Shown here one piece after another: positions 13,544 through 51,118 of a stretch of DNA of 61,822 nucleotides. Source of the stretch: a virus (Duplodnaviria > Caudoviricetes); IMG/VR virus record IMGVR_UViG_3300032285_001570, positions 1-61,822 of that record; one strand, 5' to 3'. The stretch's first letter is position 1, and every line of letters begins with the position of its first letter. The translations under genes and the position numbers were made by a program. The notes under the pieces were generated by a model. The model did no database searches, was not told where the DNA came from, and saw nothing but the letters and a program-made list of their open reading frames with translations.

Positions 13544-14266
13544 TTACGTCACTTTCTGCCGGTATTGACCACTGCGGTATGCATCCTGACGCTCCATGCC
13601 ATCGCCGAGGCGTTTAGCAATCGCAAGAGCTTCTTGGTACTTCTTCTCGTACTGAGCAGTGATGTCAACTTCACCCTTCATGTACGTATAGCCTTCTACC
13701 AACGATGCGTACAAGAGGACAGAATCAAGATTATCGCCAAGCCAAGTTTGACCATCAGAAGCGGTTGTAATGCTCTCAGGGTAGTAAAAGTAATGAAGCT
13801 CGACGGTGTAATTAACATCTGGCGTAGGTCCCAAAATAAACGATAGTTCGTCTGAAATTGTGGAGCCTGAAACAGTTGGACCAAACAAAGCGTAGTACTG
13901 CGGAAGATCACGATCCGCAGTTGTGACAGTTGGGAACGACTCTCGTATAAAGTTAACGTCTTTATTAAGCAAGTAATGATATGCGCCCAAACTGTCTACA
14001 ACAGCCATAGAGTACACAGCCAAGAAATCAGTTGGGCAAGACAAATACTTGTTACCAGTGCTTGCTGTACCGGTGACGTTCTTGCGGATTGATGGGAACT
14101 GCACTGCATTGAAGATACGCTGTTCAGCTTGCGTGATGAACGTGTTGATCTGCTGAGTACCAGAAAACGTAGTCGTGCCCGAGCCAGACGTATCTGTCCA
14201 CGTCGAGGTTGGGAAATCGTTTTCGAGGTAACTTTTTAGCGTACTAAACAGTGTCGTGTAGTTCAC
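13544..14266 (-). CDS. Head-tail adaptor protein
   Basis: FITQAEQRI...GPTPD..Y.VELHY...LLYASLVE; podovirus adaptor pattern. Confidence 0.65.
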   Translation of the reverse strand: MNYTTLFSTLKSYLENDFPTSTWTDTSGSGTTTFSGTQQINTFITQAEQRIFNAVQFPSIRKNVTGTASTGNKYLSCPTDFLAVYSMAVVDSLGAYHYLLNKDVNFIRESFPTVTTADRDLPQYYALFGPTVSGSTISDELSFILGPTPDVNYTVELHYFYYPESITTASDGQTWLGDNLDSVLLYASLVEGYTYMKGEVDITAQYEKKYQEALAIAKRLGDGMERQDAYRSGQYRQKVT

Positions 14267-14275
14267 AACGAATCC

Positions 14276-14476
14276 TTACGCCATTGGTCCGCGAGCCATC
14301 TTGCCCTTGGTCTGAGCTTTTCCACCACGCACTTGGATGCCTGATGTTTTCACATCTGTCTCAGGATAACCAGAGCCCTCAGGCAACACGTTCGTGTTTG
14401 GACGAGGCTGTGTGTACTTTCCAATCGGATCTTTCGTTTCGACAGGAAAGAAATCAAATTTGTCATTCGAGTTCAT
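14276..14476 (-). CDS. Small protein with basic C-terminus
   Basis: GIQVRGGKAQTKGKMARGPMA; coupled to neighbours. Confidence 0.6.
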   Translation of the reverse strand: MNSNDKFDFFPVETKDPIGKYTQPRPNTNVLPEGSGYPETDVKTSGIQVRGGKAQTKGKMARGPMA

Positions 14477-14652
14477 TAACGCCCCCGGCTAGATGACTTC
14501 TGATTCATTGCACGAGCAAGATTGCGTCCGTACTTTTTCATTTCTAAAGATGTAACGCCACCTTTTTTCATGCCGTGCATGCGCTTCTCGTGGCTCTTCA
14601 CTTCTTTTTTAGCCTCGACATCAGCAATTTTTTTAACTTGTTTCTTGTCCAT
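14476..14652 (-). CDS. 58-aa basic protein with MKKGG motif (missed by ORF track)
   Basis: GGAG RBS; MDKKQVKKIADVEAKKEVKSHEKRMHGMKKGGVTSLEMKKYGRNLARAMNQKSSSRGR*; TAATG overlap with next gene. Confidence 0.75.
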   Translation of the reverse strand: MDKKQVKKIADVEAKKEVKSHEKRMHGMKKGGVTSLEMKKYGRNLARAMNQKSSSRGR

Positions 14653-14662
14653 TTAATGCTCC

Positions 14663-15088
14663 TTAAGTAACGGATACGGTTACAGTTCCTATTGAAATAC
14701 CCATCGCCAAATTGTTTGGCGTTAGCCCATCATCATTCAATCGGGAACCGCCAACCGGTGCCCATCCCCACTGTATGATTCTACTACCACCCTCTGGTGT
14801 ACCGTTAGCTAAATAGCCAGTACCAGTCTGCGTTATTTGCAATCCGTTATTGCCTGAACTGACGTAGCTAACGTCTGGTCTTGGTTCACGCACAGCCTGC
14901 GGATCATTCACTGGATACAAACCCAACGACAACTGCGGCTGATCCGGTTCCCAGCAAGATGGGCAAACCTTGATAGATACGTTCTTGGTCTTGATGACCA
15001 GGTTCTTTAGTTGAGTGAGCTTATAGCGAAAACCGCAGCGGTCGCACTCTGCGATTGCAAACTTGCCAGATGCAAATCTGCTTGGCAT
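14663..15088 (-). CDS. Zn-ribbon protein of head-tail region
   Basis: CDRC...CPSC pair. Confidence 0.65.
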   Translation of the reverse strand: MPSRFASGKFAIAECDRCGFRYKLTQLKNLVIKTKNVSIKVCPSCWEPDQPQLSLGLYPVNDPQAVREPRPDVSYVSSGNNGLQITQTGTGYLANGTPEGGSRIIQWGWAPVGGSRLNDDGLTPNNLAMGISIGTVTVSVT

Positions 15089-15090
15089 GA

Positions 15091-15825
15091 CTAGCGGATA
15101 AAGCTTTCACGCGGAACAAAACGAACCGGAGCCTTCTCTCGGTCTTCTGTAGCCGCCAACTCCCACTGCTGCTCGTAATCTGCTTTCAGCATTGGGATGC
15201 GATTAGGATCAACTCCTGGTAGCTTCATCGATAAGTTATAGGCAAGCCCAGCCACCATTGCAGGCATCATGCGGAATGGGATGTCCTGACCATTGATACC
15301 GTTGCCTGCATCCTGCATACGGCGCAAACGCCAGTACACAAAGGTATAAGTCTGGCTGTTATCTGGCGTAGGCCAAACGTGAATACGCGGCGGGACGGTT
15401 TGCCCTGTTGAATCTGTAGCGCCAGTGCGGCGCTGAATCCATACCTGAATCGGACGCCCAACAGCATTCTTGTTGGGGATCATGGCGTAGGTTGATTCGC
15501 TGATCCGGCTGATATTGATGTCAGTCTGGTTCTGGTAAGTTCCAGTGCGGATAACGTGATCCAAAAGATCGACTGTATCGACAGGTAAATCGTACGTGAT
15601 CGTTGGCGTGGGGGAAGTGTATGCAAGAGTTATTTGCCCCTGCTCCACCGTCCACATGTTAATCCCACGGTTCGCCCATTCCATCGTAAGCAGGTTTAGG
15701 GATCGACGAGCCGTACGAAGGTCGTAACCAGAACGCAGCTCTTGACCACAGCGTTCAAACGCCTCCTCGACCAGTTGGTTTAGGTCAAGGTTAAATGCAG
15801 TTGTGTCTGTGGTTTTATAGGCCAT
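15091..15825 (-). CDS. Second adaptor/connector-like virion protein
   Basis: ARRSLNLL..EWANRG.N.W, GRP, WPTPD motifs. Confidence 0.6.
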   Translation of the reverse strand: MAYKTTDTTAFNLDLNQLVEEAFERCGQELRSGYDLRTARRSLNLLTMEWANRGINMWTVEQGQITLAYTSPTPTITYDLPVDTVDLLDHVIRTGTYQNQTDINISRISESTYAMIPNKNAVGRPIQVWIQRRTGATDSTGQTVPPRIHVWPTPDNSQTYTFVYWRLRRMQDAGNGINGQDIPFRMMPAMVAGLAYNLSMKLPGVDPNRIPMLKADYEQQWELAATEDREKAPVRFVPRESFIR

Positions 15826-16077
15826 TTATTTCTTCGCAGTCTTAGCCGAATCAATGAAAGCTTGAGCCGTTGGTGCGCCCTTCTGTCCTGGCTTGCGCAT
15901 CTTCTCGCCAGAGCCTTTGGCTATGCGCTTTTGCTTTGCGTGGATATTTGCGTAAAGACCTACGGGGCCACCCTTTTTGTACAGGGTGACATCGTTCGGA
16001 TCATCCTTGCGTTTGATCGTCTTGGCTTTAGGCATCTTGGAGGGGGCAATCGCCCCCATCCCGCGCGAGGCTCTCAC
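15826..16077 (-). CDS. Small basic core-like protein (YKKGG)
   Basis: K/R-rich; GLYANIHAKQKRI. Confidence 0.65.
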   Translation of the reverse strand: MRASRGMGAIAPSKMPKAKTIKRKDDPNDVTLYKKGGPVGLYANIHAKQKRIAKGSGEKMRKPGQKGAPTAQAFIDSAKTAKK

Positions 16078-16737
16078 TTAGCACACTTTCCCGCGAGTAT
16101 GACCCTTGGTCTGGATCGAGTGCTCGCCGTGGGCACGGATTGAACCGCCCTTAGCAAACGACTTGGGACCACCAGCCATTTTTTCCTCAAGAGCGCGAGT
16201 GTGACCACGTTTCTGAATGCCATGCTCGCCATGAGCGAGCTTGACGTTTGAACCCTTCTCAACGTCAGAACCCATGCCACGCGGACCCATCACTTCTTTA
16301 ATGCTGCCGCCTTTTGCCATTTTCAGTCCACCCTTTTTGTATGGAGCCATAGCCATCTGATCTTTCTCGATGTCTTTCTTAGGACGCATCATGCCGCCCT
16401 TTTTCATGCCCTTCATCTCTGCCATCTCATGTTTGATCATGGAGGCAGGAGCACCCTTCTTCTTCATAAAGCCAACTTCTTTTTTAACCATCGCTTTGGA
16501 TTCCACGTTGCCTCCAGTTTTCATACCGGCGAACCGGTTTAGTTTGTTAAACGGCATGTCAACCTTGCCATGCCGGGTATCTTGCTTTGCAATTTTCATT
16601 AAACCACCAGCAGCCTTCTTCAAACCTTCCTTCGACATGCGTTCAGCATCAGCCTGTTTGATGCCACTACTCTTAGCAATCGCAGGGTTGTGCGCTGCCG
16701 CACGGAAAAGCTTTAGCTGTTTGGCGGTCCAAGGCAT
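16078..16737 (-). CDS. Basic Lys/Met-rich core-like protein with multiple xxGG motifs
   Basis: MKTGG, MKKGG, YKKGG, MAKGG, FAKGG; internal repeat AHGEH.IQ..GHTR. Confidence 0.75.
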   Translation of the reverse strand: MPWTAKQLKLFRAAAHNPAIAKSSGIKQADAERMSKEGLKKAAGGLMKIAKQDTRHGKVDMPFNKLNRFAGMKTGGNVESKAMVKKEVGFMKKKGAPASMIKHEMAEMKGMKKGGMMRPKKDIEKDQMAMAPYKKGGLKMAKGGSIKEVMGPRGMGSDVEKGSNVKLAHGEHGIQKRGHTRALEEKMAGGPKSFAKGGSIRAHGEHSIQTKGHTRGKVC

Positions 16738-16910
16738 TACTTCATCTTCTTCAAAGTCTGCGCTAAACGAGCGCGCTGCCCCATGACACCAGGTTTCTTA
16801 GCAGCAGCTGCCAGCTTCTTGGCTGGGATAGTTTTGCCAGCCTTAACACCAAGAGATGAACGCAAAGCGCCTGGTTTCTTAATCGCTTTCTGAATCCATT
16901 TCTCAGCCAT
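16737..16910 (-). CDS. 57-aa basic protein (start revised to MAEKWIQ)
   Basis: Very Lys-rich; ATG overlaps upstream stop. Confidence 0.7.
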   Translation of the reverse strand: MAEKWIQKAIKKPGALRSSLGVKAGKTIPAKKLAAAAKKPGVMGQRARLAQTLKKMK

Positions 16911-17191
16911 TAGATCATCCTGCCTTTTGTTTTGCCGCGCTCTGCACAACCATCAGCACGTTTAGATGCTGAAGATACTGAGCCACCGGCCTTGTATCCA
17001 GCTTGATTATAGGCTTCGACATCGCGCACGTCTTGCGGAACTTTTTTGAAGTCAGCAACGGCACGTTTAAAATCTTTGTCCGCGCCAGCTTTGTATGTCG
17101 TCGATACTTTGCTTAACATGTCATTGCCAGCGTTTGCAGCTTCTTCTGCACGCTTACGCGCATCTTCCATCTTTGCTTTGTAATTAGCCAC
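16910..17191 (-). CDS. Basic core-like protein (YKAGG)
   Basis: GYKAGGSVSSASKRADGCAERGKTKGRMI. Confidence 0.7.
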   Translation of the reverse strand: MANYKAKMEDARKRAEEAANAGNDMLSKVSTTYKAGADKDFKRAVADFKKVPQDVRDVEAYNQAGYKAGGSVSSASKRADGCAERGKTKGRMI

Positions 17192-17200
17192 GTTGACCCT

Positions 17201-17389
17201 TTAAAGTTTTATGGGCACACCTTTGCCCACAAGAAAACCAACGACTAAAGCACCAACAAGTACCAAGAATTTTTCAATAAAAGTCCTGCCAACTTTTTTG
17301 TAAAACTCATCTGATAGCTCTTCGATAGCAATCCTCGCCGCTTCTTTGGCAATCAATCGTTCGCGGTCTGTGAGTTCAATCCCGTTCAT
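17201..17389 (-). CDS. Small protein with C-terminal TM helix
   Basis: FLVLVGALVVGFLVG hydrophobic stretch. Confidence 0.6.
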   Translation of the reverse strand: MNGIELTDRERLIAKEAARIAIEELSDEFYKKVGRTFIEKFLVLVGALVVGFLVGKGVPIKL

Positions 17390-17390
17390 G

Positions 17391-17645
17391 TCAACATTTC
17401 CACGCCCGAAGGCTCTTGTTAATACGAGAATTTGGGTCGTTCGCTGTCTTTGCTGAAGTTAACTTCTTCTTCATACCGCTCATGCGGGCACAGAAGGACG
17501 CCTTTCTTGGGCCTCCCTCCGGTTGTGGTGCTTTGAGTCCAGGCTTTCCAGGATTTGCGCGATTGTACGAGGCTCGACCCTTGGCGTTCAAACCGCCCTT
17601 CGGATTCTTGCCTTCCTTTCGTTGCCATGCTGGAGTCTTAGCCAT
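17391..17645 (-). CDS. Basic conserved phage protein (DUF6321-like)
   Basis: GGLNAKGRASY...RKASFCARMSG...DPNSRINKSLRAWKC. Confidence 0.65.
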   Translation of the reverse strand: MAKTPAWQRKEGKNPKGGLNAKGRASYNRANPGKPGLKAPQPEGGPRKASFCARMSGMKKKLTSAKTANDPNSRINKSLRAWKC

Positions 17646-18400
17646 TACGCCGCATCGCTCAAGGTTTGTTCAACAGGGGTTAGCATCGGATACAAGATGT
17701 CATTACCAAAGTCGCTCAAGTATTCATGCACCCCCATGTGACCAAGCTTGATCGTTGGGTCAATCCAAATGTCGAACCCAGCTGCGCGGGCGCGATCACA
17801 GAATAAAAAGTCTTCACCGATGTAGCCTTGTGGCGTGGTCAGGAAGTCAAAGTAAGCATGAAGGATCTTGTCGCTGTTGGTGTCTTTGTGCGCCCACTCA
17901 GGGTGGTCATCACGCAACTTTTCAAACACCTTGCGCTGAATCATCATAAAACCAGTGGCAATACGGTGAGCTTTGACGTTGCCCATCTGATCCATACTCA
18001 CCGTACCTTCGGTACCATTCACACCTTCACCGCCATCAAGCGAGAGGATGTACACCTTTCCCTCTTTACGAGCTTGGTAAGCGCCGCCAACAATCGCTTT
18101 GCTTTGATTCCACGCCAGCAGACGGATCACTGAATCTGGATCAAACGTCATGTCCGAATCAATGAACATCAGATGATCGCAATCAGACTGCATAAACTCG
18201 TACGCAATAAGGTTCCGCGCACGGGACACAACAGAACAGCCGCAGATGCTGCTGACCTGAATATGAATCCCATGCTCCAACACTTTCTGAGCAAGCTGCA
18301 TTAACGATACCGCCATCTTCAAACCTACTTTATGGTCGTAGGCTGGAAGACCAATCATTATTTTTTTGCCAGCAAGATCGAAACCTTTTTGGTTTTGCAC
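17645..18400 (-). CDS. GT-A fold glycosyltransferase
   Basis: RARN, LMFIDSDM (DxD), TGFMMI, GEDFLFC, LGH motifs. Confidence 0.75.
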   Translation of the reverse strand: MQNQKGFDLAGKKIMIGLPAYDHKVGLKMAVSLMQLAQKVLEHGIHIQVSSICGCSVVSRARNLIAYEFMQSDCDHLMFIDSDMTFDPDSVIRLLAWNQSKAIVGGAYQARKEGKVYILSLDGGEGVNGTEGTVSMDQMGNVKAHRIATGFMMIQRKVFEKLRDDHPEWAHKDTNSDKILHAYFDFLTTPQGYIGEDFLFCDRARAAGFDIWIDPTIKLGHMGVHEYLSDFGNDILYPMLTPVEQTLSDAA

Positions 18401-18403: not shown

Positions 18404-18712
18404 TCACCCGTAGAAAATTGTCACAGAGCCAATACCGGTTACAGTTGCATACACGTTCGTACTGAATCGTACGCCTTCACCCGGCATTAAAAGATACGTT
18501 GGTTGTGTGACGGAACCAACAGTATTGACAGTCATACGCGTAGAACCACTAGAACCACCATCAGTTAAGACGACAGATCCAGCGGATGCACCGGGTACGA
18601 TATAAATAGCTTTAACGCGGCAAGATTGAATATTGCCAGCGCTATTCTGTGCAGCAAATTGCCCTGAAGCTGTGAGCGGTACGCTTGCTAATACATCTGT
18701 TTGCATAGCCAT
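18404..18712 (-). CDS. Small virion/head decoration-like beta protein
   Basis: Beta-rich; in head module. Confidence 0.5.
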   Translation of the reverse strand: MAMQTDVLASVPLTASGQFAAQNSAGNIQSCRVKAIYIVPGASAGSVVLTDGGSSGSTRMTVNTVGSVTQPTYLLMPGEGVRFSTNVYATVTGIGSVTIFYG

Positions 18713-18765: not shown

Positions 18766-19236
18766 TTAGTTCTGTAACGATGTTGGGTTAGCTGCACCGT
18801 CAGAGCCACGCACAACGTACGCAATCACAATCGTTCCCGCACCAGTCGTCGCCGAAGCAAGTGTGTAGGTCACAATCGCGTCGGTCGTACCAACGTTATT
18901 GATTAAACCAGCAGCAGTCGTGCTTGCAGCACCGAGCGTAAAAGAAACAACACCAGCAGTGGCAGTTGGAAGCGTCGCAGTGTTTGTGATATCAGTCGCG
19001 CCAATCGAAAGCTTTAACGTGCCAGCGCCATACAGCGTTGTGCAGTTAAAAGATGCTGAAGTAATTTGTGCGCCAGCAGGAAGAACAAAAGCTGTTGCGG
19101 CAGTGCCGCTTGTTCCAATTGCAATGCTTTGGGACACGATGGTCGCGCCCATGTTACGAATCGTTCCAGCAGTAGTGCCGGTCGTGTTTTTAACGGTACC
19201 GAGTAACCACGGTCCAAGATGAGTAGCGAAACCCAT
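18766..19236 (-). CDS. Virion structural protein (head decoration/fibre candidate)
   Basis: T/A/G-rich; LPAGAQI motif; downstream of capsid gene. Confidence 0.6.
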   Translation of the reverse strand: MGFATHLGPWLLGTVKNTTGTTAGTIRNMGATIVSQSIAIGTSGTAATAFVLPAGAQITSASFNCTTLYGAGTLKLSIGATDITNTATLPTATAGVVSFTLGAASTTAAGLINNVGTTDAIVTYTLASATTGAGTIVIAYVVRGSDGAANPTSLQN

Positions 19237-19375: not shown

Positions 19376-19564
19376 TTACGCTTCCTCGTACTCTTCCTCT
19401 TCCTCTTCTTCCTCTTCCTCTTCCTCGTCCCAATCCTCGTCTTCGTCTTCATCAACTTCTGGGATTTGCAACGACTCTAAGAAATCACCCAAGCCACTCA
19501 GGTCAAGGTCGTAATCCGATTCAATCGTCAAGGTAACGCCGAAATACTCAATTGTGATGCTCAT
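19376..19564 (-). CDS. Hyper-acidic 62-aa protein (DNA-mimic candidate)
   Basis: GGAG RBS; no K or R; poly-E/D C-terminal half. Confidence 0.7.
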   Translation of the reverse strand: MSITIEYFGVTLTIESDYDLDLSGLGDFLESLQIPEVDEDEDEDWDEEEEEEEEEEEEYEEA

Positions 19565-19703: not shown

Positions 19704-20612
19704 TTACGCACCTTGCGAACCAAAGATTCCAAGGGGATCAGACCAGCCGAAGCTGTAACGCTCACGAGCCTTGTAACGGACGTTACCGGTGTCGAAGTCG
19801 CCGTCCATGCTGTTTTGCAGCGGGGTGCGGACGAAGTGCTTCATACCGTTAGGCACGTCGGTCATCAAGAACCAGCCGTTGGTGTCGGTCAAGAAGTGGT
19901 TAACAGCGTAACCTTCTGGGATCGAAGCCAATGACTTGATCGCGTTGATGTCGTTGTCGGTCGTGCCAACACGCAATTCCGTCTGCAAGAGGCGGGTTGC
20001 GACGAACATCAGGCTTGGAGGAACAATCAACTTGCGTGGTTTAGCAGCGATGAGCAAACCACGTTCGTCGGTCCAGCCAGCGATCTGAATAACGGCGGCT
20101 TCAAGCGAAGTCTCGTTCAGGTCGGCTTGGGTTGCGAAAGTGTTGCTGTTCGTGCCACCCGAAACAAGCGGATGATCCGTAGCGCAGAGAACCTTACCGT
20201 CACCACCGGTGTAACCCGAGGTAAAGGCGTTGTTCAGCACTGCGGCACCCTTAACTTGCTTGGTGTACGCCATAGCGCGAGCCAACGACTTGGTGTAACG
20301 AGCAGACAAGCTGTCGTACAAGTTATCCTCAATCGCTTCTTCAGTGATCGAGAAACCCAAGGCGATGGTTTCGTGCTGGTAACGAGCCGTCCAAGCTTCT
20401 TGGGCGTTGTCATAGGCAATTGCGTTGCCCTCGTTCTTGACAGGAGCGGCGGAGAAACCGGACAGCTTGGTTTCTTCTTCGAACGAACGCTCAGAGCTCT
20501 CGGTTTCATAGATCTCTTTGTGCTCTTCGCCGTAACGAGCATACTCCAAGCCGAACAATGCGTTCAGACCGGGGAGAAGCTCTTTCAGTAGTTGTGCGCG
20601 TGAAATAGCCAT
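19704..20612 (-). CDS. Major capsid protein (Mu gpT-like, HK97 fold)
   Basis: MAISRAQLLKELLPGLNALFGLEY...PRKLIVPP...DFDTGNVRYKARERYSFGWSDP; strong terminator follows. Confidence 0.85.
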   Translation of the reverse strand: MAISRAQLLKELLPGLNALFGLEYARYGEEHKEIYETESSERSFEEETKLSGFSAAPVKNEGNAIAYDNAQEAWTARYQHETIALGFSITEEAIEDNLYDSLSARYTKSLARAMAYTKQVKGAAVLNNAFTSGYTGGDGKVLCATDHPLVSGGTNSNTFATQADLNETSLEAAVIQIAGWTDERGLLIAAKPRKLIVPPSLMFVATRLLQTELRVGTTDNDINAIKSLASIPEGYAVNHFLTDTNGWFLMTDVPNGMKHFVRTPLQNSMDGDFDTGNVRYKARERYSFGWSDPLGIFGSQGA

Positions 20613-21267: not shown

Positions 21268-21723
21268 TTATTTGGACCCGCGCCCAAATGAAACCGCAGA
21301 TTTGCGTTCATTGAACAACGGCATCCGAGGGTCGTTTGTCTTCATAAAACTATTGTCCACTGCCTCAATTTGAGATTCGGATTGGCGGCCGTAATATGCA
21401 TTACGCTGCTGCACCATCTCAATTGGTGCCTTGCACAACAGCAAACCTCCTACCTCAACATTGTCTTTAAACTTACTGCTGGGGTCGGAGTAAAGGTGCA
21501 TCTCTGGATGGTCTTCTGACTTGCAGGGAACCCATCCTTCTCTAAACTTTGCGGAAGTATTCGTGGGATCAAATTGACCCATGATTGCTGTCCGAATCCA
21601 CCTAAACGCGTAACCATCTTTGGGTTCCGGTGTTGGTAGTGTCTGTGGGGCAACCCACGCTGCAGGTCGCTGTGTAGTTTCTCTACCTTGTAACTCACGA
21701 GCGAGACGAGTATTTTCAGCCAT
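21268..21723 (-). CDS. Conserved head-module protein
   Basis: LPTPEPKDGYAFRWIR...REGWVP...VGGLLLCK. Confidence 0.6.
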   Translation of the reverse strand: MAENTRLARELQGRETTQRPAAWVAPQTLPTPEPKDGYAFRWIRTAIMGQFDPTNTSAKFREGWVPCKSEDHPEMHLYSDPSSKFKDNVEVGGLLLCKAPIEMVQQRNAYYGRQSESQIEAVDNSFMKTNDPRMPLFNERKSAVSFGRGSK

Positions 21724-22684
21724 TTTGTTTCTCCAAGTTAAGAACTGCTTTTGCGTACACTTCCGGTTTTAAGCCCAACTTCTTGGCCAGAGCCATCTGT
21801 GTGTTCGTAAGTCGCACTTGTTTTGGCGCGGTGCTTCGCGTTGCTGGAGCTACAACTGTGGCTGCTTTGCGCGGAGCGGGCTTTTCGTCCACTGCCTCCG
21901 TCGGTTCAGGCTTGGCTTCCTCAAATTGCTCTGGGAAACGTCGCCGTATTGTTTCATCCACTCGGCGGTAGTAGTCATCACTTGTAGGATCTACACCAGA
22001 CCGGACCAGCTTCTCATGCAGGCCAAGAGCGAGGGCAGTCATCTCCTCATCCGCACCGAACCAGGTATTTTTCGCTTTCCAAGCTTCCGCTTTAAGATCG
22101 CGATTTTGCTGCATTTGGCGTGGTTGAACCTGTTCAGTTTTAGTTTCTACTCCAATTTCACTTGCATGTAAAGAGGGTGAATTCACCTCACGTAACCGTA
22201 ACTTGGCATCTGTGAGTTCCTCTTGTGCATCTGTAATCAATGAAGCGTCGCCAGATTCATAGGCTTCCTTCAAGCGCTGCTTGGCAGCCAGCAACTCTGC
22301 ATTTGCGCTCTTGGTTATCTCTTCAGCAATCAGCTTCTTGCCAGCACCAAGCTGCTGTTTCAATTGCCGGTTTTCTTCAAGATACGCCTGCGCTACCCTA
22401 AACGCTTCCTCCCTTTCACGGGCGGCAGAATCTTTGGCTCGGCGCTCGTCATGCCAGACCTTCTTCATCTGGCTCAGACGTTTCTTGACCTTTTCCGAAT
22501 ATTCTTCTAGATCGTCTTTTTCAAGCTCCTCCACAATCTCTGATGGGAGCGGCTCACGCCCACGGTCTTGCGGCGGCGTGTCATCTACTACCTCAAGCTC
22601 AATATCCTCTATGGTTTCTTCAGGAGCAGCTGCTTGAGCTGCTGGAGTTTCATCAATTTCATCTGGAAATTTAAAGCCTGCCAT
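21716..22684 (-). CDS. Capsid scaffolding protein
   Basis: Acidic N-terminus, long coiled coil, AKKLGL..E.YAK C-terminus; position before MCP. Confidence 0.7.
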   Translation of the reverse strand: MAGFKFPDEIDETPAAQAAAPEETIEDIELEVVDDTPPQDRGREPLPSEIVEELEKDDLEEYSEKVKKRLSQMKKVWHDERRAKDSAAREREEAFRVAQAYLEENRQLKQQLGAGKKLIAEEITKSANAELLAAKQRLKEAYESGDASLITDAQEELTDAKLRLREVNSPSLHASEIGVETKTEQVQPRQMQQNRDLKAEAWKAKNTWFGADEEMTALALGLHEKLVRSGVDPTSDDYYRRVDETIRRRFPEQFEEAKPEPTEAVDEKPAPRKAATVVAPATRSTAPKQVRLTNTQMALAKKLGLKPEVYAKAVLNLEKQNG

Positions 22685-44464: not shown

Positions 44465-47400
44465 CTACATCCCAGCCTGTCTGCGTATCTGCTCAATGCC
44501 CTCAAGGATCTCGCCACGTATCTTCTGAAGATCGTTAATTTCCTTGCGCCGCTCACTTGGGGTGATGGTCTTGTCTACAGCGGTGCCGTAGAAGCGGATG
44601 GCCTGGTTGATTTCCTTGAATGCGTTGTCAACTTCATTAACGTAGTCGTGCATAGCAATCAGGTCTTCATTGGCATTGAGGTACTTGTCAAGCTCTTCAT
44701 CTTTTAGACGCTCTGCTTTGATCGTCATTGTTTTATACGCCTGATCAATCTCGCCCTTGAGATCGTAGAACAAGTCCTCGCGACCACGTGGCACTTCTGG
44801 GCGCAGGAACGCACCTATCAATGGATACTCTTTAGCCTGTACATCTGGACGTACGCCTGCCGCCTGACCCATAACATTGCTAGCCCACTGAGCCATAGCA
44901 CCAGCCGATCCAAAGATGGAGCGAACCAGATGGTCTGCCTCTATGGGATTCAGCAAACGATTCTTCTCTGTGCCAGTCAGCGCGGAAATCATTTTGCCAA
45001 ACTCAGATGTGGTCATCGTGTATTGCTCGGCAGGTTCCAGATCCTTCATCCCAGACGGAGTAATTTCTCGTCCGGAGAAGAAGCTATGGTTTAGACCAAT
45101 CTCAATGAACGGCTTGCCGGCAGCGGGAATGGGCTCGGGTCCAAGCAACATATCTCGTGCGGCCTCTGCAAGGGCGCGACGCAAGCGACGGTTATCGATA
45201 GGCGTCTGGGTGCTTTCCTTCATCACCTTGTTATAGATCATCTCAGGAATAGCTTTGAAGAAGTACGCAGCCGATGTGTTCATCGGAAGCATGATCTTCG
45301 TACCAGGAATCATAAAGTTGCGCAGCTTGGTCTGGTCATCCAGCTGGTTGTATTCATCATCGTCGCCAACAAGCATGCAATAAATCAATGTTGCAGACAC
45401 CATCAACGTGCCAGTAACCGCAAGTCTTTGCAGCGCTCTACTACGGCTAATTCCTTTTAGGCCGCCACCAGCTAATGCTTGGAACAGCACGTCAGTTGAG
45501 TTAGCCCATGCACCCATAAATGGGGCAGTCTTGACCAAGAACTGGGCAATCTGTCCAGAACCGTGGCGGTTAAAGTTGATGACGTTTGCTGCTTGATATA
45601 GAGCCTGAGCTTCATCACCAGTTTCTGCGAGCACACGCTTGTACGTGGCCACGCGCTGCGCCATATCTGAGGCATCGCCGATGTGGTCTAAACCGCGCAG
45701 CACAAAGCTAGCAACGTTGCGATTCATGATGCCTAGACGCTGCTTGATCTCAGCCTCTGGAGTGCGCGTTGGAGAGCGGAACCCAGCGATACCTGCAGAG
45801 TGAAGAATGTCTACAACAGGATCTGTTTTTGTCAACGATGTGACGAACCCTTTGTACACACCACCAATTAGCAGCGCTGGATTTTTCACTCCAGTAACGA
45901 TAGCTGCAGTAGGCGCATCTTTAAATACCTGCTTAATTTGGAACGCGCCAGACAGTGTGATGGTGCGACGAGTTAAGTTGGCAGCCGCTGCAAGGATCGG
46001 GATGGTCTTCAGGCCAAGCGTCTCCATGCCAAAGATTGATTCTGCAACCAAAGGATCTTGGATCTCTACGACAATCCTCTTGCCATTAGCGATAAAGTTA
46101 AACCGACCCTTGGCTGGATCAACCTTCGGAACCACCATGAGATTGCCGTTGGGCTCGCGTGTGGCGTAGTCTTTAACAATCCGCATCGCTGCGTACTGGC
46201 GCAATCCATTCATGGTCATACGCATGACGTTACGCGTCATGTTATCGATGACGTTTTCAATCTCTCGGTTGGTGTTAAATACCACCAAGTCTCCAGCTTT
46301 GATCGGCGCATGGATGGTCACTTCACCAGTTGGCGTGATGTCCATCTTGTCAGCAGGCACTGGTTTTCCATTGATCGTAGCCTTGATCACAGACGCAGGC
46401 TGGATCTGAAACTTCTTCTGTCCTGGTTCCGCAACGAAATCTGTAATCACCTTGGGCTTGCCGCGCTTGAATAATTTCTCCAAGCCGATGTTCGTCATCT
46501 TGCGAGTCGTGCTCTGCAATGGTGAATGCACATCTGCCGCGTCATCCATGATGCGGTTCCAAGGCACGTAGTCATCGATGGATGACAGCACTTGGTAGCG
46601 TCCCGGACTTAACAGGCCAACCTGCCTCCAGAAATTAAGCATGTTCTGGTTAACTGCAGTCCAGTTCTCCATGATTTCGCGAAGCTCTGGATGCACTTCC
46701 TCGCGGGCGATGAAGTCTGCAATCTCTTCATCGGACATATTGATCTTGGCATTTGCCACCTTGATTGCATCGAGGTCTTCAGCTGCATCTTCAAGCTCTG
46801 TGGTTACGCGCTTCAATTCTTTTGGATCAGGAGATGCTTGTGCCTTGAGCTTGGCCAACTCAGCATTGAGATCATCATATTGCTGGGTGCGCTTATACAG
46901 TTCATTCTGAATGCTGCGCGAACGCTTGGCCTCTAGGTAGGCTTGTATTAAATCTGTACCAACTTGATCACCAAGCATCTTCTTAAGCTTGATCTCTGCT
47001 TTGTATACGCCAGCCATTCCCTTGTCAGTTTTGACGGCGTTAAACGTCAACGTCTTGGGATCGTACTTGATGCCACCACGGAAGATTACTTCGGTCGCAA
47101 GCTGTGCACCACGAATAGCGTTGTCTAGCGCTACAGATGCAGTGGCGAATCCTTCGCTAGTGCGCAAGGCTCCGTTGTATTGCTTAAAGTCTGCAGCGTT
47201 AAGACCAGAACCAAACCACACATTTTTATTGCGTATGTAAGTAATGCCTTGTAGCAATTGATCCATCGTGTCTTTTGCTGTAGCTACTGGATGCATCACG
47301 GCATCTTTGAACAAGTCCTTGCTATAGCGGCCAGCACGCGTGATCGCAGTCAGCATTGGCGATGTATCTAGCTGCGGCGTATTGGGACGGTTGTACTTAC

Positions 47401-50400
47401 GCAGCATCCTCTCGTCGTCGCCAAGACTTAAGAACTTCTTTCCACGTTGCAGCATTGAGTCAGAAACAAATTGACCGTCTGCTGTGCTGAGGCTATTGAG
47501 GGCTTTGAGAATTGGCGCATCAGATTGCATGCCAAACAATCCCTTGATGCGTTGAGCAAAACTACCAAGCCAATTTTTAAGTCTGGTTAGTACGTTACCA
47601 TGCACAGCGGCATATTTACCTTCAACAATTCTTGAGCCATTCACCGCCCAAAATTCTGATGGGTTGAAGTATTGGTAATTTTGTTCTGCTGAAACATAGC
47701 CATTCGTTAATAGACCTGTGGCAATTTCTAGGCTGGATCTTTTGTCAGCTCCCTCAGGTAGACTCACCAATGTATCAAAGAATATTGCTTTCGCATCTTC
47801 TGGTATATCAAGATAACGATGATCATTTTTACCCAAATGGGCGTCCATTAACATCGCAAAGTACAATTTATCCGCAGGAATTTTTGCTTTTTTCTGAGCT
47901 GATACCAGCTGCTTTAGCCATTCCTTACGAATCGCCTCTTGCACGTTAGCAGGCATCATTCTTTCAAGATGATGCAAAATCTCGTGCACAACGGTATCGC
48001 CAGTATCACGCCCTTTCAACAACATAACAAGCCGAGTGATGGGGTTATATGTGCCAGCCGCAACGCTGCCTTGTCCGGGTTGGCGAATACCAATTCCAAG
48101 ATCATCAAGCAAAGCTGGGTTTTGCTGAATGAACCATTCTGCTAGATCCACTCCGTAGGCATCTAGCTCATCACGACGCTTGGCTTCAAGAAGTTTTTGG
48201 CGAATGTAATCTGCGCCACGCACGCGCGGCTTGACTGGCTTAGTATGCGTTGCTTTGTGCACTGTAAACACGGCTTCGCTAACTTTTGCAATAAACTGCT
48301 CGTTAGTGATCTTGCCAGCATCAAGACGGCGTTCCAGTGTCTCAAGTATGCGCTTAAGTGATGGCGAACGTTTTTGCTCTGTATCGTATGCAGTTGGTTG
48401 CGGTCTACGTATAGAAGCAAACATGTCTGGACCGGCTGGTTCTTCAACCTGTTGCGGCTCTTCAACGGCAGGCTTACGGCCCTCTCTAATCTCGGCAATT
48501 AATTCTGGGTTTGTGGACCATTTATCCCATGCGGACTTGAGTTGCTTCAGCTCATCGATGCGACGCTTAATGGCATCTGGATCTTTAACATCAATGCCTT
48601 CTGCTTTGGCAATCGCTGGGTTCTTAGCTGCGCCGCTGATCGCAGACAGACGTGTTTGAATCTCGCGCTGTTTGCTAGACGCAGCCTTGGCCATGTCATC
48701 TGCCTCACGCATCGCGCTATCGTCAAAGTCAAACATGTCAGTGGTGGTGTCGCTCTCACCAGCAAGCGCCTTCACAGCCTGCATCGTGTTCACGGCCATG
48801 TTCATCGACTTGCCGTCTGCGATTGCTTTTAGTCCAACAGACTGAAGGCGCGCATCGTTCGGAGCATTCAGCGCTACATAGTAGGCGGCTTCATCCCCGA
48901 TTTGGTCGTTACGAACGGCGGCAATGAGTTCGTCGCTGCCTTGATTTGCGATTGTGAAAGACCGCTTTCCCGTAGCCCTTGCCAGAAGTCCTTTTGACTC
49001 GGCTGTGTCGCGGTCGATGCCGGCTTCTTTGAAGTAGTTAACATAGTCTTTTACCTTGCCTTGTCCGTCACGGATGTTTAACTCTGCATCTAAGATGGCA
49101 GCCTGTACTCGGTCAAATCCTTTTGCCTCGTCGTGTATCTGCGCTGGTATGGTTGTTTCTCCACTGCGCTGCGCCAAGTCAAGGCGATGACGCCCAGAGA
49201 TCACCTCTAGCGATCCATCTAAACGACGCCATACTTGGATCGGCGCTACACCTGTGCGCTCAAACTTTCCACCAAGCGGCTCAACAACACCCTTTTCAGA
49301 TGCGCCAAGCTTGAACTGCGGCACATCTTTAGAAAGCTTTAAATCTTGAACAGGCACTTCCTGTATTGGCAGCCCTTGCGCTTCATGCTGTGGCGCTGCT
49401 GGCTCTTGCACTGCAGGCTGCTGGATAGCGGGCGGTGCGGCAGGTGTTGTTGGCAACGCAGCGGCAGCTGGTGTTTCTGTGGGCGCGGCAGGAGCGGCTT
49501 CTGGCTCTGCAAATAAATCAGCTGTGGTCACCATGCCCGGTACAGCCTCGGGCTCCTTCACTGCAGCAGGCGCTGTAGCTGCAGGTTGTTCAGCAGCCTG
49601 GGCGCCAACAACCGTTGGGATCGGTGCGGGTGTTTCTACAGTCTTGCGCTCAAGCGGTGGCCCCGCTTCTTCGCCTTCTGGGCGCGCAAATCCTGCACGC
49701 TCAAGCATCAAACGTGACATGCCTTGATAGCTGGTGTCAGGCTTGTAGCCTTTGCTCTCAAATAACTTCGCTGCTGTCTGCGCTGCCTTTGCTCCACCGG
49801 AAACAGTGGCTGTGGTAACGCCAGCCTGCAACACAGTCTGACGCAGCGTTTCCTCAAGCTCTTTGTACAGATCCACCAAGCTTGGATTGCCCTGCGTCCC
49901 AATACCAGGTAGCGCATCAATCCCATACTGGGTTAACGTGGTGGCCATCTCAGATGGGATCTCTGATGCAATAGACTTTGCAACGTATTCTGGGATTCCA
50001 TCAACGCCATTTTTGGCTACAAATCCCTTGAGCCCAGCTAACGCTTTGGTCATACCAAAACGCTCAAAGAAAACTTCAGCGGCTGCCATAGGCACTGCGC
50101 GTGTGGCGGCAACAGCCCCTGACAATCCTGAGGCACGCCCTTCGCCATACGAGTCGCCAAACTGTTGAAGCGCGGCCTGTGCTAGCACAGGTCCAGCTGT
50201 GCCTGTTAACGCGCTCAAAGCAATTGTTGGCGCCTGACCAGCCAAGCTTGTCATCGCATGTTGCGCTGATCTTTCAAATATCGTATTGCCTTCAGGAATG
50301 GCCTGCTCTCTAGCTCCCTCGATGCGGCGTGCATTACCCAAACGGACGCTCGTCTCTCGGTCACCAAGCAGATCCGCTGTTGCTTGCGCCAACCCAAGAC

Positions 50401-51118
50401 CAGACTTTGCGTATTGCGATGCAGCACCTGCACCAACACGCTCCCAGAATCCTGCGTTCTCAAGTTCCTCGGCGCGCTTCTGTGCTTCAGCCGCCGCCTT
50501 CTCTCCAACAACGTCAGCTTCCATCTGCTGCAGGTCAGGGAACACAGTGCCCGATAGCGCCTGTGTTTGAGCGTAGCTTTCTGCAAACTCTGGGCGTAAG
50601 CCTTGTTTGATAAATCGACGACGCTGTGCCTCTAGTCGCGTATCGGTCGCCTTCTGTATCGTCTCAGGTGCGGCGTTTAACTTTGCATAACGCTGCTCGA
50701 TCACGCGCGCGGCACGTCCGTACGCATCAGGGCTTTGCTTAATCTTTTCTAACGCTGCAGCTCGCTGGTCTGCTGGTAATGAATCCAGTTGCGCTTGCAC
50801 GCTCGTAATGAAGCGAGGATTCAACATCGGATCTTCTGGCACACCAGCGGTCTTCGCCGGCACATTCATCACCGATGGAGCCTCCGGCGTTGCTACCGGA
50901 ACGTCAAGACCAGCAAACGTATTGGTGTCAGGAACGATGGGCGCAGCAGGCTTAGCAATCGCGGGAGCAGCAGGAGTGGCAGCAGCAGGCGCAGCTGTTT
51001 CAGCAGCTGGCGCAGCGGGCTCTTGACTACCTAGATAATTCAGGATTTTTGCTTTTGCTGCCGCCGGATCCGTTTCTGAAAGATCGTAATGTTTACCTTG
51101 GTATTGGTAAATGGGCAT
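44465..51118 (-). CDS. Large polyvalent ejected protein (ParB-like, HExxH metallopeptidase-like, LPD38-like C-terminus)
   Basis: IQVW...ISGRHR; VVHEILHH; INF.R.G...PF; last and largest gene of ejection cluster. Confidence 0.75.
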   Translation of the reverse strand: MPIYQYQGKHYDLSETDPAAAKAKILNYLGSQEPAAPAAETAAPAAATPAAPAIAKPAAPIVPDTNTFAGLDVPVATPEAPSVMNVPAKTAGVPEDPMLNPRFITSVQAQLDSLPADQRAAALEKIKQSPDAYGRAARVIEQRYAKLNAAPETIQKATDTRLEAQRRRFIKQGLRPEFAESYAQTQALSGTVFPDLQQMEADVVGEKAAAEAQKRAEELENAGFWERVGAGAASQYAKSGLGLAQATADLLGDRETSVRLGNARRIEGAREQAIPEGNTIFERSAQHAMTSLAGQAPTIALSALTGTAGPVLAQAALQQFGDSYGEGRASGLSGAVAATRAVPMAAAEVFFERFGMTKALAGLKGFVAKNGVDGIPEYVAKSIASEIPSEMATTLTQYGIDALPGIGTQGNPSLVDLYKELEETLRQTVLQAGVTTATVSGGAKAAQTAAKLFESKGYKPDTSYQGMSRLMLERAGFARPEGEEAGPPLERKTVETPAPIPTVVGAQAAEQPAATAPAAVKEPEAVPGMVTTADLFAEPEAAPAAPTETPAAAALPTTPAAPPAIQQPAVQEPAAPQHEAQGLPIQEVPVQDLKLSKDVPQFKLGASEKGVVEPLGGKFERTGVAPIQVWRRLDGSLEVISGRHRLDLAQRSGETTIPAQIHDEAKGFDRVQAAILDAELNIRDGQGKVKDYVNYFKEAGIDRDTAESKGLLARATGKRSFTIANQGSDELIAAVRNDQIGDEAAYYVALNAPNDARLQSVGLKAIADGKSMNMAVNTMQAVKALAGESDTTTDMFDFDDSAMREADDMAKAASSKQREIQTRLSAISGAAKNPAIAKAEGIDVKDPDAIKRRIDELKQLKSAWDKWSTNPELIAEIREGRKPAVEEPQQVEEPAGPDMFASIRRPQPTAYDTEQKRSPSLKRILETLERRLDAGKITNEQFIAKVSEAVFTVHKATHTKPVKPRVRGADYIRQKLLEAKRRDELDAYGVDLAEWFIQQNPALLDDLGIGIRQPGQGSVAAGTYNPITRLVMLLKGRDTGDTVVHEILHHLERMMPANVQEAIRKEWLKQLVSAQKKAKIPADKLYFAMLMDAHLGKNDHRYLDIPEDAKAIFFDTLVSLPEGADKRSSLEIATGLLTNGYVSAEQNYQYFNPSEFWAVNGSRIVEGKYAAVHGNVLTRLKNWLGSFAQRIKGLFGMQSDAPILKALNSLSTADGQFVSDSMLQRGKKFLSLGDDERMLRKYNRPNTPQLDTSPMLTAITRAGRYSKDLFKDAVMHPVATAKDTMDQLLQGITYIRNKNVWFGSGLNAADFKQYNGALRTSEGFATASVALDNAIRGAQLATEVIFRGGIKYDPKTLTFNAVKTDKGMAGVYKAEIKLKKMLGDQVGTDLIQAYLEAKRSRSIQNELYKRTQQYDDLNAELAKLKAQASPDPKELKRVTTELEDAAEDLDAIKVANAKINMSDEEIADFIAREEVHPELREIMENWTAVNQNMLNFWRQVGLLSPGRYQVLSSIDDYVPWNRIMDDAADVHSPLQSTTRKMTNIGLEKLFKRGKPKVITDFVAEPGQKKFQIQPASVIKATINGKPVPADKMDITPTGEVTIHAPIKAGDLVVFNTNREIENVIDNMTRNVMRMTMNGLRQYAAMRIVKDYATREPNGNLMVVPKVDPAKGRFNFIANGKRIVVEIQDPLVAESIFGMETLGLKTIPILAAAANLTRRTITLSGAFQIKQVFKDAPTAAIVTGVKNPALLIGGVYKGFVTSLTKTDPVVDILHSAGIAGFRSPTRTPEAEIKQRLGIMNRNVASFVLRGLDHIGDASDMAQRVATYKRVLAETGDEAQALYQAANVINFNRHGSGQIAQFLVKTAPFMGAWANSTDVLFQALAGGGLKGISRSRALQRLAVTGTLMVSATLIYCMLVGDDDEYNQLDDQTKLRNFMIPGTKIMLPMNTSAAYFFKAIPEMIYNKVMKESTQTPIDNRRLRRALAEAARDMLLGPEPIPAAGKPFIEIGLNHSFFSGREITPSGMKDLEPAEQYTMTTSEFGKMISALTGTEKNRLLNPIEADHLVRSIFGSAGAMAQWASNVMGQAAGVRPDVQAKEYPLIGAFLRPEVPRGREDLFYDLKGEIDQAYKTMTIKAERLKDEELDKYLNANEDLIAMHDYVNEVDNAFKEINQAIRFYGTAVDKTITPSERRKEINDLQKIRGEILEGIEQIRRQAGM

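Follow-up and report, generated by a model that had tools for sequence, protein, structure and literature searches.

A Gly-Gly joint shared by small basic and ejection-type proteins of a phage, and what it may be for

Introduction

Why should a set of very small, lysine-rich phage proteins share a short peptide with much larger proteins encoded 35-40 kb away in the same genome? The question is raised by positions 14276-17645 of a 61,822-nucleotide stretch of DNA from a member of the Caudoviricetes (IMG/VR virus record IMGVR_UViG_3300032285_001570; here 'the window' means this whole stretch), which form a late-gene cassette between the capsid gene and the head-tail adaptor genes. The cassette proteins are small, lysine-rich and largely unfolded, and are built of portable mini-modules of 20-40 residues, each ending in a joint of the form (M/F/Y)-[A/K]-x-G-G, after which x-(V/I/M) is usual. 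This motif also marks disordered parts of ejection-type proteins encoded 35-40 kb from the cassette. An earlier reading of the window (the original prediction) had proposed that it is a cleavage or encapsidation tag on internal virion cargo, from which short basic peptides would be released. We are confident in our description of the motif, its restriction to certain proteins and its place at joints; our view of its function, set out further below, is more tentative.

The motif and its restriction to two kinds of protein

In its strict form, [M/Y/F]-[A/K]-x-G-G, the motif occurs in four cassette proteins, all encoded on the minus strand: a 58-aa lysine-rich protein (14476..14652), with MKKGG at residue 28 (14557-14571); an 83-aa basic protein (15826..16077), with YKKGG at residue 33 (15967-15981); a 219-aa lysine/methionine-rich mosaic protein (16078..16737), five of whose seven GG sites fit (MKTGG at residue 72, MKKGG at 111, YKKGG at 133, MAKGG at 140 and FAKGG at 194; respectively 16510-16524, 16393-16407, 16327-16341, 16306-16320 and 16144-16158); and a 93-aa protein (16910..17191), with YKAGG at residue 66 (16982-16996). 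When expected counts were obtained by composition-preserving residue shuffles of each protein, the 219-aa protein alone had five copies against 0.14 expected, and the four proteins together had eight against 0.19, a total reached in none of 50,000 shuffles (the maximum was four). The 675-aa ejection-type protein has four copies against 0.18 expected (P ~1e-4), and a 504-aa protein of the same block has one against 0.03, which is weak evidence when taken alone. All the copies named in the original prediction were thus located; it had overlooked three YAGGG strings in a 1170-aa fibre-like protein (5780-9292; 32% glycine; 0.83 expected, P ~0.05), every one of them within Gly_rich_2 repeats. As it had also claimed, the window's capsid, portal and terminase proteins have no copy: the remaining 82 open reading frames (ORFs) of the window (17,134 aa), these three included, have none against 1.5 expected. 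Those glycine-rich repeats aside, the motif is restricted to the small basic and ejection-type proteins; the window's shell, terminase, adaptor and tail-side proteins all lack it. Because the motif was defined after the sequence had been inspected, these P-values are generous; support that does not depend on the window is given by homologues and related loci.

The 219-aa protein has 2962 database relatives at E <=1e-3 (among 5108 candidates), all of them unnamed metagenomic or viral proteins; a tblastn search of 50,697 phage records with the low-complexity filter on gave one partial match. The best 120 of the 2962 relatives contain 847 GG sites in 499 unique 14-residue contexts, of which 302 fit the strict motif. 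Among these best 120, the residue at position -3 to the GG is M (36%), F (22%) or Y (19%), jointly 77% against a background of 12%, that at position -2 is A (39%) or K (28%), and the second residue after the GG is V, M or I in 61%. As this last position is mostly hydrophobic, the footprint spans both sides of the GG, and in full is hydrophobic-[A/K]-x-G-G-x-hydrophobic.

Three sets of related loci were also examined: 80 viral contigs retrieved with the 219-aa protein and syntenic with the window, 54 contigs retrieved with the 675-aa protein (and so bearing on the ejection block), and 79 loci retrieved with a fusion protein containing the domain DUF6321 (18 of them with a GC content <0.40, some of these 18 on contigs of ~80-118 kb). 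Their ORFs came from a simple caller (longest non-overlapping ORFs of at least 40 aa, with genes truncated at contig ends being missed) and were labelled by BLAST to window proteins at E <=1e-4; the loci are non-independent samples, and the counts should be read in that light. Across the 80 loci, observed and expected copies were 156 and 6.2 for 219-aa-like proteins, 57 and 2.2 for 93-aa-like proteins (63 homologues), 25 and 1.0 for 83-aa-like proteins (27 homologues) and 15 and 0.74 for 58-aa-like proteins (22 homologues). The same loci gave no copies in capsid proteins (47 ORFs with 85 GG sites; 1.4 expected), large terminases (65 GG sites; 0.46 expected), the two adaptor families (106 ORFs; 1.6 expected) or DUF6321 proteins (46 ORFs with 88 GG sites; 0.9 expected), one copy in portals (30 ORFs with 53 GG sites; 1.1 expected) and 15 in 704 unlabelled ORFs (8.0 expected). 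In the 54 loci, 675-aa-like proteins had 96 copies against 9.9 expected and 335-aa-like proteins 23 against 3.7, with none in 360-aa-like (0.75 expected) or 700-aa-like (3.0 expected) structural proteins. The small basic proteins are thus enriched 10- to 25-fold and two of the ejection-type proteins roughly 6- to 10-fold, and both sets of loci show the contrast with other proteins. In the 79 DUF6321-fusion loci, small basic ORFs had 38 copies against 2.7 expected where GC was <0.40 and 144 against 9.0 in the rest, the figures for other ORFs being 1 against 2.9 and 69 against 14.3; since these loci also show the enrichment, the link between motif and small basic proteins is not confined to the lineage of the window.

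Might the motif nevertheless be an accident, or follow simply from a composition rich in K, G and M or from repeats in the DNA? The proteins are indeed rich in K, G, A and M, and the definition of the motif was post hoc. Composition and chance are, however, ruled out as its source by the shuffles and by the lack of copies in the other 82 ORFs of the window, and the 10- to 25-fold enrichment recurs in related loci that are independent of it. A DNA-level repeat or recombination hotspot is ruled out by synonymous codons that differ from copy to copy (GGT GGC, GGA GGC or GGC GGC for the glycines; AAA or AAG for lysine), which means that selection has acted at the level of the protein and that it is the peptide, not the DNA, that is conserved. 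We regard chance as refuted, with a residual probability that is negligible.

Two further features of the copies deserve mention. Some are in tandem, 2-11 residues apart (YKKGGLKMAKGG, MADGGIAGYADGG and YAGGGQVKAFQEGGPTFVEGG), and some lie only 3-4 residues from a C-terminus (..KMAYGGKTC and ..MKGGGYC). The variable residue x is often D, E or S in ejection proteins and K, R or A in the small proteins, and with acidic residues in the one group and basic in the other, charge is not what is read.

The ejection-type proteins

At the end of the genome opposite to the cassette are genes for a holin, an endolysin, structural proteins of 700 and 360 aa, the ejection block (675 aa, GNAT, 335 aa and 504 aa) and a 2217-aa polyvalent protein. 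The 675-aa protein (54107-56134, minus strand) has MAQGG at residue 36, MAGGG at 408, MAAGG at 576 and YAAGG at 587, and consists of a conserved N-terminal box (..LVHMTPxEV..LAMAxGGSLTINPxTGLPEAG), glycine-zipper-like helices, a long disordered middle part and a conserved C-terminal box. Among 29 aligned members of its family, the GG pairs at 39-40, 351-352, 579-580 and 590-591 are all at least 90% conserved, with G39, G579, G580 and G591 strictly invariant, and the rest of the protein is very variable. By tblastn it matches eight phage records, in the C-terminal box only.

The Gln/Gly-rich 335-aa protein (52641-53648, minus strand) belongs to PHROG 4287, 'DNA ejection protein' (7.7e-26). It has no strict motif and ends ..SGMGGR; its relatives run on for 25-30 residues past F-A-[KER]-G-G, this tail being optional. 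The 504-aa protein (51127-52641, minus strand) has its single copy, YARGG, at residue 128 (YARGGIVAFAQG), and the corresponding position in related loci is occupied by unlabelled ORFs with MADGGIAGYADGG or YAGGGIVAFAxGG. A gene for a GNAT acetyltransferase (53658-54110, minus strand) also lies inside the block, and is present in two of the 54 related loci.

To judge from gene position and from the PHROG name of the 335-aa protein, the motif-bearing proteins would lie in the virion. The description of the small ones as basic, core-like and DNA-condensing is an analogy suggested by their composition.

Joints between portable modules

The 219-aa protein and its homologues consist of short conserved pieces in series, with the motif at the end of each. 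Examples are ..INKQDTRHGKxDMPFNKLNRFAGMKxGG, ..ESKAMVKKEVxFMKKKGAPASMIKHExAEMxxMKKGG, ..MRPKKDIxxDQMAMAPYKKGG and ..ARGGGIESRGKTKG.. Such pieces may be present, absent, inserted or swapped in order from one homologue to another (compare, for example, the order in the window with that in homologue P0006, or AC with CA; the single-linkage clustering behind these classes merged several modules into one class, and was used solely for the AC/CA permutation). The 58-aa protein is one such piece (..KEVKSHEKRMHGMKKGG..) standing alone, and fusion and fission are frequent between neighbouring small basic genes. Indel ends in the alignments fall no more than two residues from a GG at frequencies of 26% and 18%, where chance would give 13%, and both ends are so placed in 9.9%; this is a modest excess, from events that are not independent and with gap placement that is noisy in low-complexity sequence.

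More telling is DUF6321, which in the window is a stand-alone protein of 84 aa (17391..17645, minus strand; PF19846, 73.5 bits against a gathering cut-off of 28.5, E 2.2e-20). More than 7700 fusions of this domain to other sequences were returned by the database search, and the best 120 longer proteins contain 66 unique internal junctions. A GG lies no more than six residues before the conserved Trp in 54 of these 66, and exactly four before it in 46 (GG-[S/K]-T-P-A-W); the strict motif is present in 23 and hydrophobic-x-x-GG in 35. Stand-alone DUF6321 begins M-A-K-T-P-A-W, as in the window, where the fused forms have GG-x-T-P-A-W, and its start thus coincides with the GG of the fusions. One relative combines DUF6321 in a single protein with ART-PolyVal, the ADP-ribosyltransferase found in polyvalent proteins, which ties the domain to injected cargo. 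A literature search found nothing on DUF6321, and nothing relevant on DUF6496, DUF5872 or DUF3008.

Two cases count against a strict boundary rule, as does the small size of the indel excess noted above. In a T4-like cyanophage, DUF6321 is joined to its partner with no GG, and in the 83-aa protein of the window the motif appears to have been inserted inside a module (KRKDDPNDVTLYKKGGPVGLYANI, compared with ..KRKDGSTSRRGLWDNI in other phages). The cyanophage DUF6321, which is of lower similarity, forms the C-terminal end of an 856-aa protein encoded between the terminase genes (5977-8547 of its contig, L136). In 119 of the 120 best fusion proteins listed the domain is 77-98% identical, and this high conservation suggests that it has a universal target.

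A second portable element: the C-terminal tag and terminal cysteine

The 93-aa protein ends in a tag of about 25 residues (..SKRADGCAERGKTKGRMI; 16910-17000) that includes its copy of the motif and is common to three protein families. In general form it is hydrophobic-[A/K]-x-G-G-x-[V/I]-x(3-8)-(A/R)-D-G-[C/I]-A-x-[R/K]-G-K-T-[K/R]-G-[K/R]-hydrophobic-x. In the 80 loci it ends 45 of the 63 93-aa-like proteins, 9 of the 46 219-aa-like proteins, 6 of the 46 DUF6321 proteins and 4 unlabelled ORFs, and a 308-aa protein of Planktothrix phage Pag-Yong1 ends in the same way. The tag of 51 of the 63 93-aa-like ORFs contains a Walker-A string, GxxxxGK[TS]. We rejected a P-loop NTPase as the explanation: the string is only 2-8 residues from the C-terminus of short disordered proteins, which leaves no room for the fold.

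A terminal cysteine is also common. It is the last residue in 85 of the best 120 219-aa homologues, in which Cys makes up 0.37% of residues, and in 104 of 120 DUF6321 proteins; in the window, the 219-aa protein ends ..KGHTRGKVC and the 84-aa protein ..AWKC. A terminal thiol on two unrelated families of small basic proteins suggests cross-linking or metal binding.

Is there a protease that could cut at the joint?

The original prediction saw no canonical prohead protease in the window, and envisaged cleavage at the motif, with domains of the 675-aa protein as a possible enzyme. Family scans (Pfam or PHROGs) of all window ORFs of at least 50 aa, several of which belong to no family, likewise gave no clan-CE, C39 or prohead protease, nor a match to any other peptidase family, although very remote homologues could escape such scans. 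A prohead protease between the portal and capsid genes was looked for and rejected, since nothing there has such a family match; the usual protease position is occupied by a 322-aa protein (21716-22684) that, by eye, looks like an acidic coiled-coil scaffold. In a 151-aa protein a single Cys is invariant and no His is, and the Atlas gave matches only to unnamed viral clusters for it. As for the 675-aa protein, an AlphaFold2 (AF2) model based on 29 sequences was mostly disordered, with scattered helices, a mean pLDDT (predicted local distance difference test score) of 45 and no enzyme-like domain, and a profile search of the PDB matched nothing. The proposal that this protein is an enzyme was therefore rejected, and cleavage as first put forward is not supported.

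Where the original prediction fell short was in missing a probable metallopeptidase domain within the 2217-aa protein (44465..51118, minus strand), whose gene adjoins the ejection genes. This protein, which has no copy of the motif, has a C-terminal LPD38 domain (PF18857; 77.8 bits against a cut-off of 27, 1.4e-21) and a weak ParB-like stretch (PHROGs, 7.7e-4). The best 120 of its 543 relatives often have ART-PolyVal, or are named at source as GNAT (in some cases 'GNAT superfamily N-acetyltransferase') or methylase; they have 12 motif copies against 29 expected, and so are not enriched. Approximately residues 965-1200 (47519-48226, minus strand) form the zincin-like domain, with HEILH at 47972-47986 (HEILHHLERMMP at residue 1045) and the Glu of PSEFWAVN at about residue 1155. 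Across 26 aligned sequences there is no variation in its H, E, H, H and E or in the PSEFWAV box (nor in HEILHHLE), and in 120 relatives these are at least 90% conserved. An AF2 model of residues 950-1260 had a pLDDT of 75. When it was compared exhaustively with PDB cluster representatives, the top matches were almost all zincins, at middling scores: the catalytic domain of anthrax lethal factor (Z 8.4; root-mean-square deviation 4.1 over 124 residues), PPEP-2 (8.0), PPEP-3 (7.9) and PprI (6.6), with Spartan, Wss1 and minigluzincins lower in the list. Foldseek against the PDB gave nothing at E <=0.001, there was no Pfam or PDB sequence match to the domain, and the Pfam model of the MPTase of Iyer et al. 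did not match the 2217-aa protein. The structural matches together with the invariant motif lead us to consider it a probable metallopeptidase domain. It is common to the 543 large polyvalent proteins, and no Pfam model covers it.

Could this be a dedicated Gly-Gly enzyme? HExxH is present in three of eight large ORFs downstream of the ejection genes in related loci, and loci that keep motif-rich ejection proteins without it include L084, L116, L128 and L135. As the domain is not co-conserved with the motif, and as polyvalent proteins are not motif-enriched, it makes a poor candidate for such an enzyme and was rejected in that role. A predicted complex of the domain with zinc and residues 60-150 of the 219-aa protein scored 0.01 in a run without controls, and is no evidence either way.

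What might the joint do?

The reading that we tentatively favour is that the motif is a multivalent docking label on virion cargo, and that no cleavage is involved. The joint would be a short linear recognition motif, a 'sticker' whose multiple copies might bring proteins into the procapsid by binding to the scaffold or to the inner surface of the capsid; the cargo would thereafter accompany the DNA, also on its way out, and would stay uncut. The C-terminal tag (..ADG[C/I]Ax[R/K]GKT[K/R]G[K/R]-hydrophobic-x) may act likewise. The distribution is as expected of a shared recognition mark, its bearers being all presumed cargo, from unrelated families and several lineages. To this extent the notion of a tag on internal cargo has survived: the confinement of the motif to small basic and ejection-type proteins in the window and in 134 related loci, with a single copy among 30 portal ORFs, fits it, and the location of those proteins in the virion is what we infer. 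The tandem and near-C-terminal copies, the variable residue that differs in charge between the two groups of proteins, the two-sided footprint, the second, terminal tag, the lack of a recognisable maturation protease and head genes that look scaffold-based also suit docking better than cutting, and we think docking more likely than cleavage. Several points weigh against it. A binding partner, binding itself and the uncut state of the cargo are all presumed, and the small proteins are assigned to the virion by the position of their genes. A motif at module joints would suit a cut site equally well, given the start of stand-alone DUF6321 and the modules permuted or inserted beside GG, and a putative virion-associated zincin-like domain is encoded beside the ejection genes. 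In adenovirus and African swine fever virus (ASFV), basic core proteins fenced by GG are cut. The motif could also be a passive turn or hinge that has no reader. Motifs placed in disordered regions, where modules end, are to be expected of a docking label and of a cut site alike.

Suppose, then, that the small proteins, and possibly those of the ejection block too, are made as precursors from which a cut at the GG or beside it frees short basic peptides and modules such as DUF6321; the enzyme would be either phage-borne (the zincin-like domain, or one that has escaped recognition) or a host protease. We think this unlikely, despite a varied case in its favour. It would explain the DUF6321 junctions and the stand-alone start, the permuted modules with inserts next to GG, the slight excess of indel ends there and the optional tail after F-A-x-G-G in relatives of the 335-aa protein; it has precedents in adenovirus and ASFV; and a domain with an invariant HExxH...E and zincin-like fold matches is encoded beside the ejection genes. 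Processing of polyvalent proteins by embedded metallopeptidase domains has, moreover, been proposed (Iyer et al., 2017; PMC5512222). The searches of the window ORFs gave no clan-CE, C39 or prohead protease, however; the zincin motif is in three of the eight large downstream ORFs, the other five including loci that keep motif-rich ejection proteins; the polyvalent proteins have fewer motifs than expected; neither the 675-aa nor the 151-aa protein looks like a protease; and the T4-like cyanophage fusion has no GG. Cuts at copies 2-11 residues apart, or 3-4 residues from a C-terminus, would yield useless scraps. The footprint, too, is awkward for a protease, with a conserved hydrophobic residue after the GG and another at P5, not at P4 as in the consensus of adenain and of the coronavirus papain-like protease (PLpro). 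A more elaborate version, which we hold to be more doubtful still, is that in several aquatic lineages a virion-borne protease (the zincin of the polyvalent protein, or an enzyme not recognised here) cuts precursors at hydrophobic-[A/K]-x-G-G into lysine-rich peptides of 20-40 residues and mini-domains such as DUF6321, which would coat the packed DNA and be injected along with it, with terminal cysteines cross-linking the peptides; this would be a counterpart of adenovirus and ASFV core maturation, with protamine-like cross-links. No more and no less improbable than simple cleavage, to our minds, is a joint that is purely passive: a tight turn or hinge, anchored before and after by a hydrophobic residue, for which there is no dedicated reader or protease. 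It would allow the short basic modules to fold back, either on one another or on DNA, while tolerating shuffling. Its restriction to cargo would come from common descent and from the disordered, recombining nature of these proteins. The symmetry of the footprint (hydrophobic-x-x-G-G-x-hydrophobic), the predicted disorder, the motif of the 83-aa protein that seems to sit within a module, the frequent fusion and fission of adjacent genes and the status of the GG pairs as the most conserved columns of the otherwise variable 675-aa family would all be in keeping with this. Yet a plain linker requires neither a fixed M/F/Y at -3 nor a strict GG, and the motif is found, with x acidic or basic, both in the small basic proteins and in three ejection-type proteins, families for which no common descent could be detected, and in phage lineages of very different GC content. 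It is this recurrence across unrelated families and GC-diverse lineages that points to a shared reader.

Comparison with known systems

If the joint is a docking label, the cassette would work most like the internal proteins of T4 or the cargo-loading peptides of encapsulins, while being a member of neither group. The capsid targeting sequence of T4 is a single N-terminal peptide of about 10 residues that is removed by the gp21 prohead protease. Here, the address would be internal, repeated or C-terminal, the cassette proteins do not share an N-terminus, the scans gave no gp21-like protease, and the proteins are mosaics of mini-modules. Nor is there sequence similarity, with no T4 family in the Pfam and PHROG scans. 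The likeness lies elsewhere: the T4 internal proteins (IPI, IPII, IPIII and Alt) are described as small, diverse, lysine-contacting proteins that are packed with DNA and injected, and that share a short address into the scaffolding core (Rao & Black, 2010; PMC3012670). In the present case also, unrelated small basic proteins and one fusion with an ART domain share only short portable elements. Encapsulin cargo carries short glycine/hydrophobic peptides, usually one terminal peptide each, on disordered ends that dock inside an HK97-fold shell. The capsid protein of our phage matches HK97-fold families, but there is no sequence relationship to encapsulins, the motifs are many and internal, and docking to the capsid would here be an analogy.

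The resemblance to adenovirus and ASFV is one of appearance. Adenain cuts adenovirus pVII and pre-mu, and pS273R, a clan-CE protease, cuts ASFV polyproteins; the substrates include basic, DNA-associated virion proteins with hydrophobic-x-G-G sites, several of which can be close together, and the adenain-type consensus is (M/L/I)-x-G-G|x, with the hydrophobic residue at P4. The cassette proteins are likewise basic and punctuated by hydrophobic GG-type sites, but no clan-CE protease was detected, M/F/Y would be at P5 (if the cut follows GG) with A/K at P4, and a conserved hydrophobic residue follows the GG.

The ejection block recalls gp7, gp16 and gp20 of P22 and gp14, gp15 and gp16 of T7, in being a block of three large, partly hydrophobic, partly disordered proteins encoded beside tail genes, one of which has the PHROG name 'DNA ejection protein'; no sequence match was seen, and we know of no shared Gly-Gly motif in the P22 and T7 proteins, although no search aimed at one was made. 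With polyvalent proteins (Iyer et al., 2017; PMC5512222) there are links through the LPD38 domain of the 2217-aa neighbour and the DUF6321-ART-PolyVal fusion of one relative, but the small basic proteins are not multidomain enzymes. Word searches for 'glycine' and 'linker' in PMC5512222 gave no hits, and the searched text thus makes no mention of a Gly-Gly joint.

Of all the parts of a phage particle, the proteins that lie inside it and are injected are the least understood. Thousands of unnamed proteins (for the 219-aa protein 2962 relatives, and for DUF6321 more than 7700 fusions) follow one grammar, in which portable mini-modules end in a Gly-Gly joint and are joined by a portable C-terminal tag and a last residue that is cysteine. 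The motif is on the small basic proteins of several aquatic lineages, and on ejection proteins in the window's own lineage. If it were an address label, it would make virion cargo predictable from sequence and provide a handle for loading foreign cargo into capsids of uncultured phages; if a cut site, it would be a parallel to core maturation in eukaryotic viruses and, as far as we know from searches that gave no paper on these families, tailed phages would have in it their first Gly-Gly maturation system. Cultured relatives that keep the cassette include Planktothrix phage Pag-Yong1 and Synechococcus phages MinM2 and Pra-JY27.

The rest of the cassette and its genomic setting

ORF calling and family scans place nearly all the late genes of the window on the minus strand. 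The packaging and head genes comprise those for the small terminase (27666-28541), large terminase (25739-27295) and portal (23264-25729), a GroES-like protein, the 322-aa protein mentioned above and the major capsid protein (19704-20612), which matches the HK97-fold capsid families Phage_capsid_4 and Mu gpT-like (Pfam). There are two SU10-adaptor-like proteins, one a weak match (15091-15825) and the other a firm one (13544-14266; 2e-22), after which come the tail and fibre genes. No tail tube, sheath or tape-measure family was matched in the scans of window ORFs, for which reason the phage, an aquatic one of about 62 kb, is probably short-tailed. Its nearest cultured relatives (Planktothrix phage Pag-Yong1, Synechococcus phage MinM2, phage DSL-LC04, pelagiphage HTVC023P and roseophages CRP-901/902) are distant, with 64-71% DNA identity that is limited to the capsid gene. 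For the isolates, the literature search gave only a metagenome-genome paper, on DSL-LC04.

Within the cassette, the 58-aa protein, which the original prediction took to be encoded by a missed ORF, belongs to no Pfam or PHROG family, and its 22 BLAST homologues in the 80 loci establish it as a real gene family. The neighbouring 66-aa protein (14276..14476, minus strand) has a basic C-terminus (..VRGGKAQTKGKMARGPMA) and no strict motif; it has 31 BLAST homologues in the 80 loci and a positional counterpart in Pag-Yong1 (5928-6098 of its locus, L001). In the 83-aa protein the motif is followed by a portable C-terminal module, residues 40-83 matching phrog_16028 at 2e-24. The Atlas model of the 219-aa protein has a pLDDT of 0.51. 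Next to it is a motif-free basic protein of about 57 aa (MAEKWIQKAIKKPG..; 16737..16910, minus strand; PHROG 15706, 8.5e-6). The longest ORF for this gene extends to 16949, but, from our reading of the sequence, it probably starts at an ATG that overlaps the stop codon of the 93-aa gene as TAATG (16908-16912), an overlap that suggests coupled translation within the cassette. The 93-aa protein has a helical-looking N-terminal part, and the 62-aa protein that lies between it and DUF6321 (17201..17389, minus strand) has a hydrophobic C-terminal segment, no motif and just two homologues in related loci.

Some other nearby genes merit attention. A 141-aa protein (14663-15088, minus strand) encoded between the two adaptor-like genes has two CxxC pairs (CDRC..CPSC), 55 homologues in the 80 loci and a counterpart in Pag-Yong1. 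Just past the 219-aa-like gene of three related loci are unlabelled ORFs (L020 10533-11105, L031 10513-11358 and L063 10510-11385) with no BLAST match to window proteins, one or two motif copies each and a glycine-zipper-like N-terminal hydrophobic helix (..LAGLAALGALGYM..), from which some cargo proteins may be membrane-active. Directly after the capsid gene, another 62-aa protein (19376-19564, minus strand) ends in a run of about 30 Asp/Glu residues, through which it could serve the lysine-rich proteins as partner or chaperone; it has one BLAST homologue in the 80 loci, though low complexity may hide others. A family-2-like glycosyltransferase gene (17645-18400, minus strand; a weak Pfam match, and PHROG 1574 at 5e-41) sits between the basic cassette and the genes for two small Thr/Ser/Gly-rich proteins (18404-18712 and 18766-19236) near the capsid gene, a position that may point to glycosylation of the virion. 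Finally, we draw attention to a 107-aa ORF (38325-38648, minus strand) that matches Rap1a, a type VI secretion effector immunity protein (Pfam, 2.4e-18), which is unusual in the early region of a phage.

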